Both the position numbers and the translations under genes were made by a program. A stretch of DNA of 64,000 nucleotides from Planctomycetota bacterium (GTDB lineage Bacteria; Planctomycetota; PLA2; JAEUHO01), in contig CBDCTJ010000007.1 in assembly GCA_965222115.1 (NCBI GenBank), forward strand, positions 1,984,001 to 2,048,000. Direction: 5' to 3'. This document shows positions 6,493-60,954 of this stretch, in pieces. Numbering within the stretch: position 1 is the stretch's first letter; every line of letters starts with the position of its first letter. The notes under the pieces are model-generated. The model ran no database searches, was not told where the DNA came from, and worked only from the letters and a program-made list of their open reading frames with translations.

Positions 6493-7782
6493 TCATGCCT
6501 TTCCGTTCGAACTATCGGCTAGGCCCGCGGCTGACCTGTCGCTGCCGTCATTGCGCGCATACACACGTACCGCCATGCGCTCATCGGCCTGACGTACGCG
6601 GAGGTACATCCCCCCTTCGAGCTCAAGCACGTCGGCCGAAACGGGAATGCGATCGAGGCGCGCTTGCAGAATGCCGGTGACGGTCGTGTTCTCTTCCTCT
6701 TCGTCCGCGAAGACAACATCGCAGTTGAGGAAACGAGCCACGTCACGGATGCGGGTGAGGCCGTGGACCAAGGCTTCGGTGCGCGACAGTCGCTTAACAA
6801 GTCCTTCGGTGACGTCGAGCTCGTCGATGGCTTCGCCCACGAGTTCTTCCACGAGGTCGTCCATCGTGACGATGCCTTCGGTGACGCCGTACTCGTCAAT
6901 GACTACGGCCATACGGCCGTGGGCGCGTTGCACATCGCGCAAAACGTCGTCGACCTTTTTGCTGGTTGGAACAAACAACGCTTTGCGCTTGAATTCGCCG
7001 ACCGTTTTCTCCTCGCCGCCTGTTGCGAGGGCCACCAGTGCATCGCGGCGCGCCAAGATTCCCGTCACGGCATCGAGGTCGTCGTCATAGATCGGAAACT
7101 GTGCGTGATTGGCACTCAACAGAATCTCGCGAATGCTTGCAAGTGGTGTGTCGGCCTTGAAACCACGAATGAGGCGTCGCGGCGTCATAACGTCTTCGGC
7201 CGTAATGTCGTCGAGTCGAAACACGCGCTGAATTAGTTCGACCTCGCGCGAGGCGATGTGGCCGCCCTCTTCGCCGAGCCGCGCGAGCTCCTTAATCTCC
7301 GATTCGCCGCCCGCGAGCACGCGTGACGACGGTTTGGCCCAACCCACGATCAGATCCACCAGCAACACGAGCGGGCGCAATGCCATGCTGACCCACTGCA
7401 ATAGGGGCGCAACGAGCATGGCAATCGGTTCGGGAAGCGCTTCACCGAGCACCTTGGGGACGATTTCACCAAAGGCGATGATGGCCAATGTCTGCGCGGC
7501 GATAAAGGCGAACATGCCGCCCGTGCTGTCGATCACGGTGGTGGCGTAGGCCGAGATTGCCGCGGTGCCGGCAATGGCGAAGATGTTATTGAGGATCACA
7601 ATGGAAGCGAGCGTGCGTCCGGGCTCGCGCTTGAGCGCCAGCAACCGGTCGGCGCCCTTTTCACCATTCTCCACGCGCACCCGTATGCGCGCTTCGCTCG
7701 TGGAGAGGAGCGCCGCCTCGCTAAGGGAGCAGAAAAAGGAGCCGGCCAGATTTCCGACAACGTAAAGGATGAGTTGCAACAT
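6493..7782 (-). CDS. Hemolysin/CNNM family (DUF21-CBS-CBS-CorC) Mg/Co transport protein
   Basis: SFFCSLSEAALLS, FGEIVPK, VMTPR, VIDEYG..EGIVTMDDLVEELVGE. Confidence 0.92.
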   Translation of the reverse strand: MLQLILYVVGNLAGSFFCSLSEAALLSTSEARIRVRVENGEKGADRLLALKREPGRTLASIVILNNIFAIAGTAAISAYATTVIDSTGGMFAFIAAQTLAIIAFGEIVPKVLGEALPEPIAMLVAPLLQWVSMALRPLVLLVDLIVGWAKPSSRVLAGGESEIKELARLGEEGGHIASREVELIQRVFRLDDITAEDVMTPRRLIRGFKADTPLASIREILLSANHAQFPIYDDDLDAVTGILARRDALVALATGGEEKTVGEFKRKALFVPTSKKVDDVLRDVQRAHGRMAVVIDEYGVTEGIVTMDDLVEELVGEAIDELDVTEGLVKRLSRTEALVHGLTRIRDVARFLNCDVVFADEEEENTTVTGILQARLDRIPVSADVLELEGGMYLRVRQADERMAVRVYARNDGSDRSAAGLADSSNGKA

Positions 7783-8049
7783 GGGTTTGCCTGCCTACGC
7801 AGGAGCCGCAGAGCCGAGGCTCAGTTCGAAAACTCCTCTACTACGCGATCCGATCCACTCGCTGCGAGTTGCGTCCCATTGAAATTGTCATCCTCGACGT
7901 GAACAGATCACGTCTGCGGGTCAATTTCTCGGTCCATCAACTCTCGCGTCGGTCTCGAACCGCTCGCTACGAGGCTTTTCAAACAGAGCCTATACGCCCC
8001 CGCGTGAATTGCATAGATTCCATGGCATTTCCCGCAAATGGTGACCCAG

Positions 8050-8814
8050 CTAAAAGGTGTGCAAGGCTCCCTGAGCGGCCATGCGAATGCGGGTATCGCC
8101 CAGCGCCGCCAGCTCGTTTCGAATTTCGGCGGCATAGCCAGGCTTGACATGAATGACGAAAATGGGGACGTCCTTGTTTAGCGAGGCCAGGTCGTTGGCC
8201 AGAAGCTGAGGTGTCATATGGCCGCTGCGCGTTGCCAAAGCCTCGTGGTGATTGGGGAAACTGCACTCCACGAATACGGCTCGCAGATCATCCGTCGCCG
8301 CGGCAAGATTCCACACCGCCGTGGTGGACGTCGTGTCGCCGGCAATGATGATTGACGCATCGCCGGAACGGATGCGAAAGCCCAAGCACGGCACACTGTG
8401 ATTCATCTCGCACGCGGTGAGCTCGTAGCCGTCGATCCATGTGGATGACTCACCTGCTTCAACAAATTGCCAATCGAGTACATCGGCACCATTGTGTTGA
8501 AGGTGCGTCAGGTCTGGCCACACCACATCGTTGAATATGTGCTCTTTCAAAGCCTTTTGGGTGAGGCGGGTCGTCAATAGCTTCAGCGTATCGGGTTTGC
8601 CCATGAATCGATTGGCCACAAAGAGCGGTAGCGACCAGATGTGATCCACATGGGTATGCGTGATGGCGATTCCACGAATCTTCAGTTGCGCCGCAAGTGG
8701 CAGGCTGTCGGTGAGCGCCCCTGCGTCGACCGCCACGACGTCGTCGATGAGGTAGCACGACAGCCGCGTATTCGGCGCACTTCCCCCCCCGCAACCTAGG
8801 ACTCGAATCTGCAT
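8050..8814 (-). CDS. MBL-fold 3',5'-cyclic-nucleotide phosphodiesterase (class II-like)
   Basis: MQIRVLGCGGG, VDAG, THTHVDHI, HIFNDVVWPD, HSVP, GDT, ECSFPN, SGHMTP, HVKP. Confidence 0.85.
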   Translation of the reverse strand: MQIRVLGCGGGSAPNTRLSCYLIDDVVAVDAGALTDSLPLAAQLKIRGIAITHTHVDHIWSLPLFVANRFMGKPDTLKLLTTRLTQKALKEHIFNDVVWPDLTHLQHNGADVLDWQFVEAGESSTWIDGYELTACEMNHSVPCLGFRIRSGDASIIIAGDTTSTTAVWNLAAATDDLRAVFVECSFPNHHEALATRSGHMTPQLLANDLASLNKDVPIFVIHVKPGYAAEIRNELAALGDTRIRMAAQGALHTF

Positions 8815-9071
8815 GTGGGCCGTAGCCTACCGCCGACGGCCTCATTGCACAGAAACACGGTGCGCGGAATCCCGCGAACCCATCGACGCCGTGGGGTCCG
8901 GTGGAGTTGACCGATTTTGTTGGCGACGGCTAGCATATGGGCGCAACGCCGCAGCTCATGAGGGTCCGCTAGGACGAGCCTTCGTACGGCGATTGCAAAA
9001 ATAGCCCGCGTATGTCGGCGCGTACCACTCTCGGGAGAGCATCGGTGCAACAGAGCCCGCTAATTGGCGTC

Positions 9072-55477: not shown

Positions 55478-56242
55478 TTAGGGGGCGAAGTCGGTGGGCG
55501 GGGCGGTGCGGCCTGCGCGGGCGGCGCGGCGGAGGAGCCAGATGAGGAGTATGCCGAGGACGAGGATGCCGGCGGCTTTGAAGTACCACGGGGTGGTCTC
55601 GAGCGCCTTGCCGACCCAGTCGCCAAACATGGCGTAAAGCGTGCACACGATGACGCCGGAGATGGCCACGATCAAGAAGGTCGAGAAGCGGCGCATGCCA
55701 AGCAAGTGACCAATGATACTGCCACCCAACGCTCCCGATCCTGGCAGGGGGCTCACGACAAAGAAGCCCACGCCTAACGCGGAGAGCCTGCGGATCCATG
55801 GACGTTGGCGAAGCGTGGATGCGGCTTGGGCGCGTACGTTTCGCAGCCACGGGCCGACGCCAGGTAGCCGTTGCGCGAGGTCGAGGTTGTAGGTGTACCA
55901 AAACGCACTCGCCGCATTGACCCACATCACCGTGTAGGCAAGGTCCCAGGTGCCCAAGTGAATCGAATCAATCCACTCCGCAGGAATGAACGGCAATTGC
56001 TGCATGACGACTTTGCCGAGCACCACGCTGGTGCCGAGGAACAGCAGGCTAGCCAGCCCAGCAATCATGATTTGCGACGTGTAGTCCCAGCCGCGCAGCA
56101 GATAGATCACCAGCAGAACCATCGCAGTGAGCACAATGGGCGCAAGCAGCAGCACCAACCGCCGCACAAGCCGACGATTCCATTCCATGAGGCGCTCAAA
56201 CCAGGAAGCCCGGTCCGCGTGCGCGTGTTGAGCCCCGGTCAT
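55478..56242 (-). CDS. Putative small multidrug-export family membrane protein
   Basis: Multiple TM helices; GVGFFVVSPLPGSGALGGSIIGHLLG motif. Confidence 0.7.
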   Translation of the reverse strand: MTGAQHAHADRASWFERLMEWNRRLVRRLVLLLAPIVLTAMVLLVIYLLRGWDYTSQIMIAGLASLLFLGTSVVLGKVVMQQLPFIPAEWIDSIHLGTWDLAYTVMWVNAASAFWYTYNLDLAQRLPGVGPWLRNVRAQAASTLRQRPWIRRLSALGVGFFVVSPLPGSGALGGSIIGHLLGMRRFSTFLIVAISGVIVCTLYAMFGDWVGKALETTPWYFKAAGILVLGILLIWLLRRAARAGRTAPPTDFAP

Positions 56243-56326: not shown

Positions 56327-58876
56327 TTACCGGTTGATGCGTACAATCTCCGAGACGGATCCGTCGCTGTAGGTGAGCCGGACGGTCGCATACGTCGTAG
56401 CCGCCGGGACCGTGAGATAGAGCGTGGCCTTGGTGGGGTCGATCGCCATGGGATTCTTGGGATCGACGGGGGGAATAGGGAAGTCCTGGCTCGGGTCCCC
56501 GTTGAGGCCGTACTCGATGCGTTTGAGCGACGCGCGATAGCTCATCAGCATCGAAAAATAGAGCAACACCCTGCCATCATAGTCTCGAAACATAAGCCAT
56601 GAGTTCTTCATGGATTCGAGAATGTTCTTTTGATTTTTGAGCTGGTGTGCCTGTGGATTGAAACGGATCGCAAAAGGCCCTCGCTCACGATCGCGCGCAT
56701 CGACATACTTGACGTACAGCGTAGTGGCTTTCGTGTCCATAGGTAGCGAGATGAGTAGGTTGGGCTGCGGTTTTCCGGTGCGCGCGTCAGGCGTATTCGA
56801 AAGGCCCGTTACCTTGTATGGGCCGTCTTTCGTGCCCTGGCGCCAGGACATCGTCTTGGCCAACTCTGAGATAACAAAGTACACCGACCACCCCGCGTTA
56901 CTCTGGGTCGTGGTGATCGAAACCGGGGATTCGAACAACGTGGCAGGTATTGCGCGCAACGTCGCGAGGCGAACCTGTGCATCTTGTATGTGTTTCGCTG
57001 CCTCGCTCTGATCCAAGTAGTGTTTCAGGAAGGCGCCTTCATCGCGAAGTTTGAAGAAGTTTTCCAGGTACTCCTTTTCTTTGCCCTTTTCCCACAGCGT
57101 CTGCGAGCCGAGGCGCGCCGCCGAATATTCCCTACTGAGTTCGTATTGTGCAGGTGCAAATGTGGGGTGCTTGGCCGCGTAGTCTTCGAGTGCCTTCGTC
57201 CTTCCTTCCGCAGGCAACAAAAGCATCCACGCAAACTCGGTAACCGGGTTCTTCGATACGTCTTTCATGGCGGAATACACTTCGCGCGCTCCCGCCGGTC
57301 CCTGCTGCACTTTCAGTAAGCTCTGATACTTCAAGTGCGGGTCCACGAATCCGAGGTCCGGAAACGTAAAAAACTTGCGATACGACTCCATGGCTTTCAC
57401 CGTGTCACCTCGACTCTGATACACACGCGCGTTGTGATAGTGAGCCGACGGTCGGTTAGCGTCCGCAATGACGCCGCCTTCTTTGAGCAGTGCCGCAAAG
57501 CCGGTTTTTAGTTCGTCGAGCGATTCCGCCACGCGCTCGCTGGTCTTGGCGGCCGATTCGGCGGCAGTCTTCGCAGCATCCGCAGCCGCCTTGGTCTCAT
57601 CGCTCGCCGCTTTCATCGTTTCTGCAGCATCGGCAACGCCTTTGCGAGTTTCCTCGGCCGCCTTCTCCACACGATCGGCGGTTTCTCTGCTGGTGGTGGC
57701 GGCGTCGGCTGCGGCCTTGCGTGCTTCCTCGGCCTTGTCTCGTGTCTCATTCGTGGCGACTTCCGTACGCTCACTCGCTTTGCGCGCATCCTCGGCACTC
57801 TTCTTCGTTTCGTCGCCCTTGATAAATAGGAAGTACGACACGCCCAGCAACGCCAAGATGCCCGCTGCAATGCCCCACAGCTTTGCGTCCATGCCTTTGG
57901 TTCGCGCTGCGACAGTCTTTGTGTCTTCAGCGATGCCGTCGAGTCGTCCTTCAACCGACGAGCGAAACGCGGCGATGTCATCGCGCACTTCTTGCACATC
58001 CTCGCGCAAGTTCCCGATGTATTCCTCCAAGATATCGTCGCTTACATCGAGGTAGGTGGAGGGATCCACCTTCACGTCGCCTTGATCATGAGCCGTCTGA
58101 ACCGGGCCGACGATTTCCTCGTAGTAGAGATCCATCAGTGACAGTTGGGTGGGCGTAACCTGCTTGTTGTGCGCCATGGTATTTCGAATGCGTCGCACGT
58201 CGTCCAAGAAGTAGCGAATCGTCTTTCTTCGTTCTTTCAGAAGGGTCAAGAACGGCGTGTCTTCATAAATCGGTTCGTAGCGTTCAAACTCCTCTTTATT
58301 GACAAAAAGCGAAGCTAGATCACTAAACGAAAGTCCGCTCAAAATGTCATTTGGATCGGCCTGCTGGATACAACGCTCGGCAGCTTTGCTGCTCAGTGCC
58401 TCACGAAGTCGATCCGTGAGTTGGTCTTGGTCGTTGTAGCTATCGGTAATGAGCGAGCGCACAATGAGCTCGAGCGCGCGCACCTTCTTTTGGCCAAGAT
58501 TTTCCGAGATCAATGCATCAATCGACGCGTCCACAAATTGCTTGGAAGAAGCCCGTTCTGCAGTTTCCAGCCAAGACAACAGTCGAAATCGAGCCAGCCG
58601 TCGATTCCGTGCCGACGCCGCGGTCCCCTTGCCTTCGTGGGCCATTTCCGTGCGCTCGGCATCGCGCATCGCGGTCTCCAGGCCCTTCACTTCGTGCTCG
58701 TTCAAATTTAGCGCGTCCGCCGGTTTCGCGGTTCCGGATTCTCCCTTGGTGCGAAAGTAGCCACGTACCGCATCCGGAATACTCGACGCCACCACGGCCA
58801 TTTCTGGGGCGAGCGCAATCGTGAGTCGGTGAATGGCCTTGACGATGAGCGGCTCGATCGTTTCAGAGGAAGACAT
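56327..58876 (-). CDS. Transmembrane protein with N-terminal STY4199-like HEPN domain, coiled coil, TM, Ala-rich stalk, TPR-like region and C-terminal beta domain
   Basis: VRALELIVR...FSDLASLF...FLDDVRRI-RNTMAH (RxxxxH at 58169-58186); TM WGIAAGILALLGVSYFLFI; GGAG RBS before ATG 58876. Confidence 0.8.
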   Translation of the reverse strand: MSSSETIEPLIVKAIHRLTIALAPEMAVVASSIPDAVRGYFRTKGESGTAKPADALNLNEHEVKGLETAMRDAERTEMAHEGKGTAASARNRRLARFRLLSWLETAERASSKQFVDASIDALISENLGQKKVRALELIVRSLITDSYNDQDQLTDRLREALSSKAAERCIQQADPNDILSGLSFSDLASLFVNKEEFERYEPIYEDTPFLTLLKERRKTIRYFLDDVRRIRNTMAHNKQVTPTQLSLMDLYYEEIVGPVQTAHDQGDVKVDPSTYLDVSDDILEEYIGNLREDVQEVRDDIAAFRSSVEGRLDGIAEDTKTVAARTKGMDAKLWGIAAGILALLGVSYFLFIKGDETKKSAEDARKASERTEVATNETRDKAEEARKAAADAATTSRETADRVEKAAEETRKGVADAAETMKAASDETKAAADAAKTAAESAAKTSERVAESLDELKTGFAALLKEGGVIADANRPSAHYHNARVYQSRGDTVKAMESYRKFFTFPDLGFVDPHLKYQSLLKVQQGPAGAREVYSAMKDVSKNPVTEFAWMLLLPAEGRTKALEDYAAKHPTFAPAQYELSREYSAARLGSQTLWEKGKEKEYLENFFKLRDEGAFLKHYLDQSEAAKHIQDAQVRLATLRAIPATLFESPVSITTTQSNAGWSVYFVISELAKTMSWRQGTKDGPYKVTGLSNTPDARTGKPQPNLLISLPMDTKATTLYVKYVDARDRERGPFAIRFNPQAHQLKNQKNILESMKNSWLMFRDYDGRVLLYFSMLMSYRASLKRIEYGLNGDPSQDFPIPPVDPKNPMAIDPTKATLYLTVPAATTYATVRLTYSDGSVSEIVRINR

Positions 58877-58878
58877 CG

Positions 58879-60954
58879 TTATTTCTCCGTGAGTGCGATT
58901 GCGCCATCCCAAGAATCGGAAGGCGGATCGTCTCGATAGGCTCCGGCTGCCTGTGCGTGGAGAGTGTACCCCTTTTCACCGGGCTGACCACGCCGTTCGA
59001 ATGCAAGGGCTTGAAAGCGCTCTTCGGCCCTCTCGAACGCCCCTGAATAGAAATCACGAAACGCGTCGTCCGCTCGCAATGCCAGCGCGGTGGCATTCGT
59101 ATCGTCGGCAACAAAGAACACTTCGATGGGTGCGTTGCGTCCAACGGCCCGGTACTTGCCCAAGGGGACGAGCTGGCTACGAAGCGGCTCACCTGTTGCA
59201 CGCGCGACTTCATTCGTAACAAGAATCGGCGCGCCCAGCGCTTTGGTCATGCCCTCAAGCCGCGATGCAGTGTTTACCACATCGCCCAACACGGTATACG
59301 AGCGGCGCTGTGGTGAACCCACGAGTCCGGCAATCACGTTGCCCGTGTGCACGCCAATGCCCGACCGGAACGGCCCCACGCCATCGGTCAAGAACCGATT
59401 GAAACGTCGCAGTTCTTCTTGCATAAACATTGCGGCGTGCAAAGCGCGATCGGCGTGGTGCATCGCGTCGTCACTTGCAGGAAAGAACGCCATCACGGCA
59501 TCGCCGATGAACTTATCCACCCGCCCTCTGTAGTACTCGACGCAGCGCGTCATACAACCGAAGTAGCGATTGAGTGTTGACACCAGCCGCTCGGCTGGCA
59601 AGCGTTCCGTAATCGTTGTAAATCCGCGCAGGTCGCAAAAGAGCACGGCCGCCTCTTCGCTGTGACCTTGAAACCCGTCTTGTCCGCCCTCCGTGAGCAG
59701 GCGTGCAATTTCCGCATGACCCACAAATCGACCGCTGCTATGTAGCATCCATGCATGCCGGTCAAAGGCTTTGAGCTTCTCATCGAGCCGCTTGCGCATT
59801 TCGTCGGCCGATGTCGCATCCAGTTCACGCAGCGCTTCGCGGATCAAGTCGGCTGCCAAACGTGCATCACCCGCGCGCATTGCCACATCGGCATTCGCCG
59901 CCAAGAGCGTCGCGCGATCGATCGGCGTAGTTTGGATCGCACGAGCGAAATGCGCGCGCGCTGCATCGAATGCGCTCAACGCTTCATCAATCTGCCCGAC
60001 ATCGGCAAACAGCGCCGCTCGTACTTGACTCGCCATTCCGCTCACATGGGGAAGGTCTGCGACGACAGCGCGATCTAGCTCGTCAAGTGCGTCGATATGT
60101 TCTCTTGCCTCTGCCACTCGACCCACGCGCTGCTCAAGGATGGCCAAGTGCACACGTGCAAACGCTTGCGATACCTCATCGCCTGTCGACTCCGCCAGAT
60201 GTTGGGACGCCGTCAACGCGTCGCGCGCGACATCGTGTTCGTGGCACTCGTAGTTGGCTACACCGATTTGTGTAAGGAGCGTGCACTTCAGTGATGTTGC
60301 GTCTGGCGCATGCTCAGCGACATGACGGTAGTCGTCTTCCAAATGCTGAATCGCGGCAGGGAAATCGCCAACCGCCATACACAACCGCCCCAGGTTCCCT
60401 TGCGTTAGCGCGATCCCGTGGATGTCACCCACGCGCCCCTTGGTTGCGAGTGCACGTTCAAAGGCGCGGCGCGCATCGTGAAGTAGCCCTTGGTGATGGA
60501 GGAGTTGGCCCATAGTGTCAAGCACGCGTCCCGCGTAGGCATCGGCGTATTCGGTTTCGTCCTGATCCAAGAGTTCCATACTGCGATTCAAAAACGTTGA
60601 AGCCGACAACACATTGTTTCCAGCGCGCCACGCCGCGGTTGCGCGCAGATGCATGACGACGCCGCGTGCGAACGGTGTTGACACAGCACCCGCACGTTCC
60701 GCGTCATCAAGGAAAGGCAGCAACACGGTTGTGGCGAGGATTGGATCACTGGCGATGGCGAGTGCGGCGCGAATCCGTTCGTCGAGCGATGCGACCAGCG
60801 GATCGTTGGCGTTTGTGAGTCGTTCGCAGACGCGGACGCGCGTCCGAGCGTCGATGCCAAGTTCCGTCATGAGATTGTCAAGTGTCTTCACAACGCGAAG
60901 CCTAATCGTCCTAGCCGCAGTTCCGTCACATTCGTCTTGTACGCCGCGTCCCAC
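58879..60954 (-). CDS. TPR-repeat class III adenylate/guanylate cyclase
   Basis: VLFCDLRGFT, DKFIGDAVMA, GIGVHTG, YTVLGDVVNTASRLEG, C-tail PP.DSWDGAI.LTEK; N-terminal TPRs. Start may be ATG 60870. Confidence 0.92.
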   Translation of the reverse strand: MGRGVQDECDGTAARTIRLRVVKTLDNLMTELGIDARTRVRVCERLTNANDPLVASLDERIRAALAIASDPILATTVLLPFLDDAERAGAVSTPFARGVVMHLRATAAWRAGNNVLSASTFLNRSMELLDQDETEYADAYAGRVLDTMGQLLHHQGLLHDARRAFERALATKGRVGDIHGIALTQGNLGRLCMAVGDFPAAIQHLEDDYRHVAEHAPDATSLKCTLLTQIGVANYECHEHDVARDALTASQHLAESTGDEVSQAFARVHLAILEQRVGRVAEAREHIDALDELDRAVVADLPHVSGMASQVRAALFADVGQIDEALSAFDAARAHFARAIQTTPIDRATLLAANADVAMRAGDARLAADLIREALRELDATSADEMRKRLDEKLKAFDRHAWMLHSSGRFVGHAEIARLLTEGGQDGFQGHSEEAAVLFCDLRGFTTITERLPAERLVSTLNRYFGCMTRCVEYYRGRVDKFIGDAVMAFFPASDDAMHHADRALHAAMFMQEELRRFNRFLTDGVGPFRSGIGVHTGNVIAGLVGSPQRRSYTVLGDVVNTASRLEGMTKALGAPILVTNEVARATGEPLRSQLVPLGKYRAVGRNAPIEVFFVADDTNATALALRADDAFRDFYSGAFERAEERFQALAFERRGQPGEKGYTLHAQAAGAYRDDPPSDSWDGAIALTEK

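Follow-up and report, generated by a model that had tools for sequence, protein, structure and literature searches.

The locus and its two genes

On the minus strand of a 64,000-nucleotide (nt) stretch of planctomycete DNA (contig CBDCTJ010000007.1; here called the window, within which all coordinates are counted), two open reading frames (ORFs) lie head to tail: 58879-60954, 691 residues as listed, followed by 56327-58876, 849 residues from its ATG. The first product (P0001) carries tetratricopeptide repeats (TPRs) and a class III cyclase domain; the second (P0002) is a single-pass membrane protein with an N-terminal HEPN domain of the STY4199 type. We read the pair as a real, undescribed two-gene module, inherited together and found side by side in two planctomycete families. 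No description of a cyclase–HEPN pairing was found in the literature searched, supplementary files not covered. Already on record, in Pfam and in PMC3710099, are the STY4199 family and its transmembrane (TM) fusion. The features of the two genes are as follows.

58879..60954, minus strand: gene of the TPR-containing, predicted class III adenylate cyclase, P0001 (ORF; Pfam Guanylate_cyc, E 1.3e-21, and TPR families)
59755..60648, minus strand: TPR/MalT-like helical repeat region of the cyclase, residues 103-400 (Pfam TPR_12, E 5e-13; TPR_MalT, residues 103-360)
59140..59661, minus strand: class III catalytic domain, residues 432-605 (Pfam Guanylate_cyc, alignment to solved adenylate cyclases, conservation)
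58882..59112, minus strand: C-terminal tail of the cyclase, residues 615-691, ending ...W.G.I.LTEK (alignment, sequence)
58874..58888, minus strand: junction, with GGAG at 58888-58885, the stop codon TAA at 58881-58879, 2 nt and the start codon ATG at 58876-58874 (sequence)
56327..58876, minus strand: gene of the single-pass membrane protein of 849 residues with N-terminal STY4199-type HEPN, P0002 (ORF, Pfam)
58541..58876, minus strand: N-terminal helical bundle, residues 1-112 (model with a pLDDT confidence score of 85; part of the family profile)
58076..58522, minus strand: HEPN domain, residues 119-267, with RNTMAH at 58169-58186 (Pfam, fold matches, invariant residues)
57821..58039, minus strand: long helix, residues 280-334, running into the TM helix, residues 333-352 (model, hydropathy)
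57482..57802, minus strand: Ala/Glu/Lys/Thr-rich linker, residues 359-465, of very variable length among relatives (alignment, composition)
56927..57451, minus strand: extracytoplasmic TPR-like helical repeats, residues 476-650 (model, Foldseek)
56330..56926, minus strand: two tandem immunoglobulin (Ig)/fibronectin-III-like beta-sandwich domains, residues 651-849 (model, Foldseek)

A preliminary description of this DNA, made from its letters, had noted two co-directional genes 2 nt apart, with the ribosome-binding site of the second inside the 3′ end of the first, and this layout is what the sequence holds. The GGAG site of the HEPN gene sits in the last codons of the cyclase gene. Junctions in relatives are similarly tight, from a 4-nt overlap to a 2-nt gap with a single case of 51 nt, and the two genes are probably translationally coupled. 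The conserved cyclase end ...LTEK is encoded in part by the codons ACG GAG AAA (window 58882-58893), which contain this ribosome-binding site; protein sequence and translation signal may constrain each other there. As to the extent of the cyclase gene, the stop at 58879 stands, and the start at GTG 60954 is revised: the true start is probably GTG 60891 or ATG 60870, because aligned orthologs begin there.

The predicted adenylate cyclase

All Pfam repeat matches of the cyclase (TPR_12, TPR_2 and TPR_MalT) fall within residues 103-400. Behind this array, the catalytic domain bears the two metal-binding residues Asp441 and Asp485, the ATP-type pair Lys481 and Thr554, Asn561 and Arg565, set in the motifs FCDLRGFT (439-446), DKFIGD (480-485), YTVLGD (553-558) and VNTASRLE (560-567). 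The best sequence matches among solved structures are the adenylate cyclases OaPAC, bPAC, CyaB and Spirulina CyaC (E 1e-26 to 6e-20). Identity to them extends to both metal Asp residues, to the Lys of D-K-F-I-G-D and the Thr of Y-T-[VI]-L-G-D, and likewise to the Asn and Arg of V-N-x-A-[SA]-R-L-E. Across 28 aligned orthologs, the two Asp, the Thr, the Asn and the Arg are invariant and the Lys nearly so. A Lys/Thr pair is the marker of ATP-using class IIIb cyclases, consistent with the structure matches, and therefore cyclic AMP (cAMP) is the predicted product of what appears to be an intact ATP-type class III (IIIb) enzyme. The view that intact class III residues lie behind a TPR array thus agrees with Pfam, with the solved adenylate cyclases and with the orthologs. 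The same early account saw no obvious TM segment in this protein; indeed no convincing one was found, the top 19-residue hydropathy reaching only 1.75 at a poorly conserved site.

With a class IIIb catalytic domain behind its TPR repeats, the protein resembles soluble bacterial TPR adenylate cyclases. It differs from them in belonging to a narrow ortholog group (22 proteins at E ≤1e-93, the next match coming only at 1e-42), which is tied to the HEPN gene in every genome where this could be checked. The C-terminal tail is present in the taxonomic family of the source organism, while cyclases from the family Pirellulaceae, encoded downstream of their HEPN gene, lack the whole 75-residue tail. 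The source genome encodes three other class III cyclases and several cyclic nucleoside monophosphate (cNMP)-binding proteins, all outside the window. cAMP would then be a general signal in this organism, with ordinary cAMP receptors available.

The HEPN-membrane protein

Pfam HEPN_STY4199 (PF18729) matches residues 55-272 of P0002 (E 5.3e-39, 134.7 bits against a cut-off of 25), and a whole-genome search with the same profile scores the protein at 137.4 bits. No other convincing Pfam match was found in P0002, and NCBIfam adds nothing above its cut-offs. RNTMAH, an instance of the HEPN Rx4-6H motif, occupies residues 231-236 (window 58186-58169). R231, N232 and H236 are invariant in three alignments (30, 31 and 12 relatives), also when proteobacterial relatives that lack the cyclase are included. 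An intact RNTMAH motif N-terminal to a single TM segment, with an STY4199-like profile as the family to look for, had been put forward at the outset; the Pfam match, the invariant residues and the hydropathy bear out each part.

The cytoplasmic part, modelled over residues 1-335 from 31 aligned sequences (pLDDT 85), is all-helical, with no strand of three or more residues. Foldseek with this model returned nothing from the PDB at E ≤0.001, and the bundle of residues 1-112 gave generic helical-bundle matches only, with no specific fold. For residues 119-267, a VIA-align structural search gave repeated HEPN matches (Z 5.7-7.5), comprising Roquin, AbiA, AbiF, Csm6, an AMPylated HEPN toxin (8xdj) and Cas13h.

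Residues 333-352 form the sole strong hydrophobic segment, a single TM. In relatives this segment aligns, with two or three basic residues just N-terminal of it and few C-terminal. Because the basic residues cluster on the N-terminal side, the signals fit a topology with the HEPN domain in the cytoplasm and the C-terminus outside.

Outside the membrane would lie 490 residues that the preliminary description had not covered: an Ala/Glu-rich linker, TPR-like repeats and two Ig-like domains. The linker is of low complexity and differs by >100 residues in length between close relatives, which suggests repeat expansion and contraction. The model of residues 462-849 reaches a pLDDT of 93. With Foldseek, its TPR-like repeats match those of O-GlcNAc transferase (OGT; E 2.9e-5) and also MamA and PilW, and its Ig-like domains match cytokine-receptor ectodomains (EpoR, E 6.6e-5, and IL-10R2) and the S-layer protein SbsC. 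A protein atlas search with the ectodomain returned unnamed or TPR/Fn3-type clusters only. Identity to the window protein is 39-53% in the outside part vs 35-57% in the HEPN part, so that both are about equally conserved. As modelled, P0002 is shaped like a single-pass receptor, and the large conserved outside domain suggests that this protein is itself a sensor, beyond a mere effector.

Conservation of the pair

By the source names of homologous proteins, the organism belongs to Planctomycetota. PF18729 occurs in 7 of 401 sampled genomes of this phylum, all seven in the family of the source organism. Within that family it is present in 9 of 29 genomes, and full-length cyclase orthologs (coverage from residue 61 or earlier, E ≤1e-117) are found in exactly the same nine; in the remaining 20, cyclase matches cover the catalytic domain only, from residue 357 onward. 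The genes are adjacent and co-directional in eight of the nine carriers, the junctions ranging between an overlap of 4 nt and a gap of 51 nt. The ninth genome (G410) is a fragmented assembly in which contig ends cut both genes.

A scan of one genome per species yielded 14 loci. Three of these, in Pirellulaceae genomes, have the reversed order, the HEPN gene preceding a gene for a TPR and Guanylate_cyc protein of 620-623 residues with a 4-nt overlap. Adjacency was thus found in 11 further genomes, in two planctomycete families and in two gene orders, and three unassigned metagenome contigs also carry the cyclase-then-HEPN order. HEPN proteins of the two clades are 35-39% identical and their cyclases 23-29%. 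The flanking genes change from genus to genus, and synteny is seen only for two species of one genus (g2), in which the pair (69% and 60% identity) diverges about like its neighbours (70-72%). For two species of another genus (g7), identity of the pair is just 47% and 45%, with no flanking genes in common.

In a further Pirellulaceae genome (G595), the HEPN gene is frameshifted near its catalytic motif (locus L036, G595:C2:28000-45000, about 6688-9065, minus strand), with residues 1-247 and 236-849 of P0002 matched in two frames. No cyclase ortholog was found in this genome with a Pirellulaceae query. The copy could be a decaying gene or an assembly error.

The family genomes are kin, and their co-occurrence counts are not independent events; independent support for the linkage comes from the occurrence of both gene orders, from the change of genomic position and from the decay in G595. 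Because co-occurrence is strict, adjacency holds in two orders, flanks are unrelated and decay is joint, comparative genomics makes it very likely that the two genes form one functional unit. That the two genes make a unit had been proposed from the window, and the neighbourhoods now examined agree: both genes are present in 9 of 9 carriers of the family, adjacent in eight, and the pair recurs in the three Pirellulaceae genomes.

Some apparent departures from this pattern proved spurious. Open frames of 1364-1808 residues that suggested fused cyclase–HEPN proteins were rejected as high-G+C artefacts, the cyclase being in another frame. Two loci (L024 and L025) seemed to have a different C-terminus, since tblastn matched residues 1-380 only; this was an artefact of composition statistics, and homology is full-length. 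Three database proteins of the STY4199 family (P0031, P0027 and P0030) resemble products of frameshifted or mis-called genes. P0031 opens with the C-terminal part of a cyclase and then runs into the HEPN domain; P0027 and P0030 become Arg/Pro-rich out-of-frame sequence past the HEPN part.

Relatives without a cyclase

A profile search of 1.84 billion representative proteins returned 175 members of the HEPN-membrane family at E ≤0.001, the HEPN domain being N-terminal in essentially all. Lengths and TM segments were surveyed in 150 proteins, namely 149 of 150 listed (P0031 left out) and the window's own. Among them, 110 have at least 400 residues, and 100 of these 110 show one or more hydrophobic segments, usually at residues 300-360; two of the ten proteins without such a segment are frameshifted products. 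An N-terminal HEPN domain followed by a predicted TM segment is the family-wide plan. In a Pfam scan of 62 of the 110 proteins, picked from the longer ones, HEPN_STY4199 was matched in all 62, and none had a cyclase or cNMP-binding domain (E up to 1e-5). Their C-terminal parts are mostly unannotated, with TPR in two and ankyrin, CsgG, SH3_4 and CarboxypepD_reg in one each. One planctomycete member (P0012) is named a methyl-accepting protein by one source, the probable cause being its coiled linker.

Few genomes carry the family (2 of 251 in a sample of Pirellulaceae; 3 of 127 in one order of Proteobacteria), and in most settings the cyclase is missing. In Salmonella and Enterobacter (L029, L030), STM3604/STY4199 has no cyclase beside it and is flanked by treF on one side and by a small lysozyme gene (STM3605 in Salmonella) on the other, a setting that amounts to a conserved chromosomal context for the enterobacterial gene. 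Four proteobacterial genomes have the family gene without a cyclase, among neighbours that include MipA, a GT87 glycosyltransferase, an M48 peptidase and a dioxygenase-like gene. In 15 of 18 metagenome loci, many of them on short contigs, the available flank shows no cyclase. Three loci at about 50% identity (L039-L041) have no cyclase upstream, while their downstream side lies beyond the contig ends; other metagenome loci are clearly solitary. Four loci in which no cyclase was detected (L045, L046, L053 and L056) match the window protein through the ectodomain to the very C-terminus. Downstream of another cyclase-less family gene (L047:3599-4456, plus strand) lies an ORF of 285 residues starting MYDFIGDVHGH, which looks like a motif of the metallophosphatase/Ap4A-hydrolase type.

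Since the same protein occurs without an adjacent cyclase in many lineages, the cyclase appears dispensable for it: judged by gene content, the HEPN-membrane protein evidently works alone in most lineages and has no need for this cyclase. The pairing with a TPR-cyclase is seen, within the STY4199 family, only in planctomycete genomes and the three unassigned metagenome contigs.

Neighbouring genes

Neighbours in the scanned loci are housekeeping genes that vary by genome, the sole exception being a protein of 1053 residues with protein kinase and TIR_2 domains, encoded convergently and directly after one Pirellulaceae pair (L018:12334-15495, minus strand). In the window, a gene for a membrane protein of 254 residues (55478-56242, minus strand; Pfam Sm_multidrug_ex, E 6e-10) begins 84 nt after the end of the HEPN gene and has a strong AAGGAGG site. 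A terminator and promoter scan found no terminator-like site between the HEPN-gene stop and this gene, the counts of the scan being at or under shuffled expectation, and the gene may share a transcript with the pair. As a third component it was rejected, for no homolog lies beside the pair in eight other loci compared.

Comparison with known systems

P0002 is a clear member of the HEPN_STY4199 family (134.7 bits), with the same plan of an N-terminal Rx4H HEPN domain and then one TM. The family has no assigned function, and in enterobacteria its members have treF and the lysozyme gene as neighbours, and no cyclase. An entry of PMC3710099 lists ‘Fusions to TM (STY4199), active’, and a table of PMC11000858 files STM3604 under motility and chemotaxis.

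A parallel in outline is found in eukaryotes. According to a passage of PMC3710099, the KEN domain of Ire1 is a membrane-anchored HEPN-type ribonuclease (RNase), in which a single TM divides a lumenal sensor from the RNase. The likeness of P0002 to Ire1 and RNase L is that a sensor part is joined to an HEPN-type RNase, putatively active in P0002. RNase L is driven by a nucleotide messenger. In contrast to both, P0002 has no kinase or pseudokinase domain or ankyrin sensor detectable with Pfam and is not a member of their family; its domain order is reversed, with HEPN N-terminal, and a helical bundle of 112 residues precedes the HEPN domain.

Among bacterial systems, Pycsar likewise pairs, in two genes, a class III-type cyclase with a potentially toxic partner. 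The cyclase of the window differs in having purine/ATP-type Lys/Thr residues (predicted product cAMP), and the cNMP effector domain of Pycsar is missing from P0002, in which neither PF00027 nor another nucleotide-sensor family is matched (Pfam, E up to 1). CBASS is no better fit, as no PADLOC or Pfam model of a CD-NTase is matched by either protein. The pair is thus neither Pycsar nor CBASS, as the preliminary description had held. In type III CRISPR systems, the palm domain of Cas10 makes cyclic oligoadenylate, which acts on the CARF-HEPN proteins Csm6 and Csx1. The pair shares with them the combination of a nucleotide cyclase and an HEPN protein, and the HEPN domain of Csm6 is among the fold matches; however, P0002 has no CARF or SAVED sensor (Pfam, all-helical model), the cyclase is of class III instead of Cas10, and no CRISPR-Cas genes were found among the scanned flanking genes. 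MNT-HEPN toxin–antitoxin modules, described in PMC3710099, have as antitoxin an adjacent minimal nucleotidyltransferase of the Pol-beta fold; in the window the adjacent gene is a class III cyclase, and Pfam found no NTP_transf family.

A proposed membrane receptor with a docked cyclase

We favour a sensor-RNase with cyclase output over an abortive-infection effector triggered by the cyclase. The reading to which we give a probability of roughly 45% is that P0002 is a membrane receptor HEPN RNase and the TPR-cyclase its docked output, the two making one module. The receptor is placed first because its cytoplasmic part has no nucleotide sensor, cAMP is a general signal, the ectodomain is conserved and the HEPN protein evidently works alone elsewhere. 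P0002 would be a single-pass, probably dimeric receptor, with TPR-like and tandem Ig-like domains facing the periplasm; the coiled linker and the membrane helix would connect them to a cytoplasmic HEPN domain, a putative RNase. A periplasmic or envelope cue may alter HEPN packing and so lead to RNA cleavage near the membrane, a switch modelled on the control of KEN domains in Ire1 and RNase L. The soluble TPR-cyclase would be a lineage-specific partner docking through its TPRs on the cytoplasmic part of the receptor, and would convert the same event to cAMP, presumably read by the ordinary cAMP receptors of the cell. Information would flow from receptor to cyclase, and the purpose could be to respond to envelope stress or to defend the cell at its surface. 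A complex prediction for the cyclase (663 residues) with residues 1-335 of the partner scored 0.00, which counts for neither side.

Several points weigh against this reading. The HEPN fold matches (Z 5.7-7.5) are middling for helical proteins, so that it is chiefly the Pfam profile and the motif that identify the domain as HEPN. Distribution is patchy (9 of 29, 2 of 251 and 3 of 127 genomes) and genomic positions vary, as would also be expected of a defence gene, and one of about eight neighbourhoods has the kinase-TIR protein. HEPN domains can bind nucleotides, and for this reason direct activation of the HEPN domain by cAMP may occur.

It is tempting to go one step further and see in P0002 a bacterial counterpart of Ire1, whose TPR/Ig-like receptor part would read a periplasmic or surface cue, perhaps phage attack on the envelope, and whose output would be dual, HEPN cleavage of RNA near the membrane plus cAMP made by a dedicated, docked TPR-cyclase. 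This more specific proposal is possible, yet doubtful.

Alternative readings

The first alternative spells out the preliminary description, which had put forward a TPR sensor-cyclase with a membrane-tethered RNase as a candidate abortive-infection system. The cyclase would sense, for example, a phage protein, and its cyclic nucleotide would activate the HEPN RNase, so that infected cells are shut down or killed in a manner like Pycsar or type III CRISPR. A cyclase and a putative nuclease kept as a two-gene layout in both orders, with both catalytic sites conserved, speak for this model. The pair is also patchy within genera and found at different genomic positions, even in two species of one genus with pair identity of 45-47% and no common flanking genes. 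In G595 a frameshifted HEPN gene accompanies loss of the cyclase, and the CBS-HEPN protein DS-11 (PMC13092281) offers a precedent for a nucleotide-regulated HEPN nuclease in defence. Against this, Pfam (E up to 1) finds no cNMP-binding, CARF or SAVED domain in the partner, whose cytoplasmic part is modelled as all-helical, and that same part is present in relatives without a cyclase. The predicted cAMP is also made by three other cyclases, so that a lethal trigger of this kind would be prone to cross-talk, and a conserved ectodomain of 490 residues is left without a role. The neighbours are housekeeping genes. PADLOC matched nothing in the partner and gave a PycC match to the cyclase (89.3 bits, E 6.7e-26), which was rejected as a sign of Pycsar: four signalling cyclases, with GAF/PAS, with CHASE2 and two with HAMP, score 89.7-107.3 bits. 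Because such ordinary cyclases score as high, the match means merely a class III cyclase. Abortive infection triggered by the cyclase is accordingly an unlikely role, for which the defence search and the flanks offer nothing specific. From the original proposal of a TPR sensor-cyclase joined to a membrane-tethered RNase, what survives is the unit; the cyclase as sole sensor is weakened by the conserved outside domain and by the lack of a cNMP sensor in the partner.

A second alternative makes the HEPN protein a latent toxin restrained by the cyclase, through TPR binding or through a nucleotide-dependent modification by analogy with MNT-HEPN pairs, in which HEPN is AMPylated by its partner. It would account for the tight coupling of genes that are strictly kept or lost together; HEPN toxins with ATP-using partners are known, and the AMPylated HEPN toxin 8xdj is among the fold matches. 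However, the Rx4H motif stays intact in many relatives that lack the cyclase, so that the absence of such a partner seems to be tolerated; the order of the genes varies, and class III cyclases are not known to modify proteins. A toxin–regulator pair is therefore decidedly improbable.

Finally, that the genes are functionally unrelated and just have a common transcript is barely credible: the HEPN-membrane family elsewhere is mostly without a cyclase, but presence and absence are joint in 29 of 29 family genomes, the genes stay neighbours in two families that differ in gene order and share just 23-39% protein identity, and flanking genes are unrelated.

Significance

HEPN RNases are central to CRISPR types III and VI, to toxin–antitoxin and abortive-infection systems, and to eukaryotic Ire1 and RNase L, and a membrane-spanning, receptor-shaped HEPN RNase has no studied bacterial example. 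If the defence reading were true, the pair would be a cyclase–nuclease immune module using neither a known sensor domain nor a dedicated messenger. If P0002 is indeed a bacterial counterpart of Ire1, the STY4199 family, including Salmonella STM3604, would be a new class of one-component transmembrane sensor RNases. With the pair, the STY4199 family gains its first conserved partner together with a testable hypothesis, and the planctomycete pair provides a simple two-gene system for asking whether extracytoplasmic signals control RNA cleavage and how cAMP is wired in.

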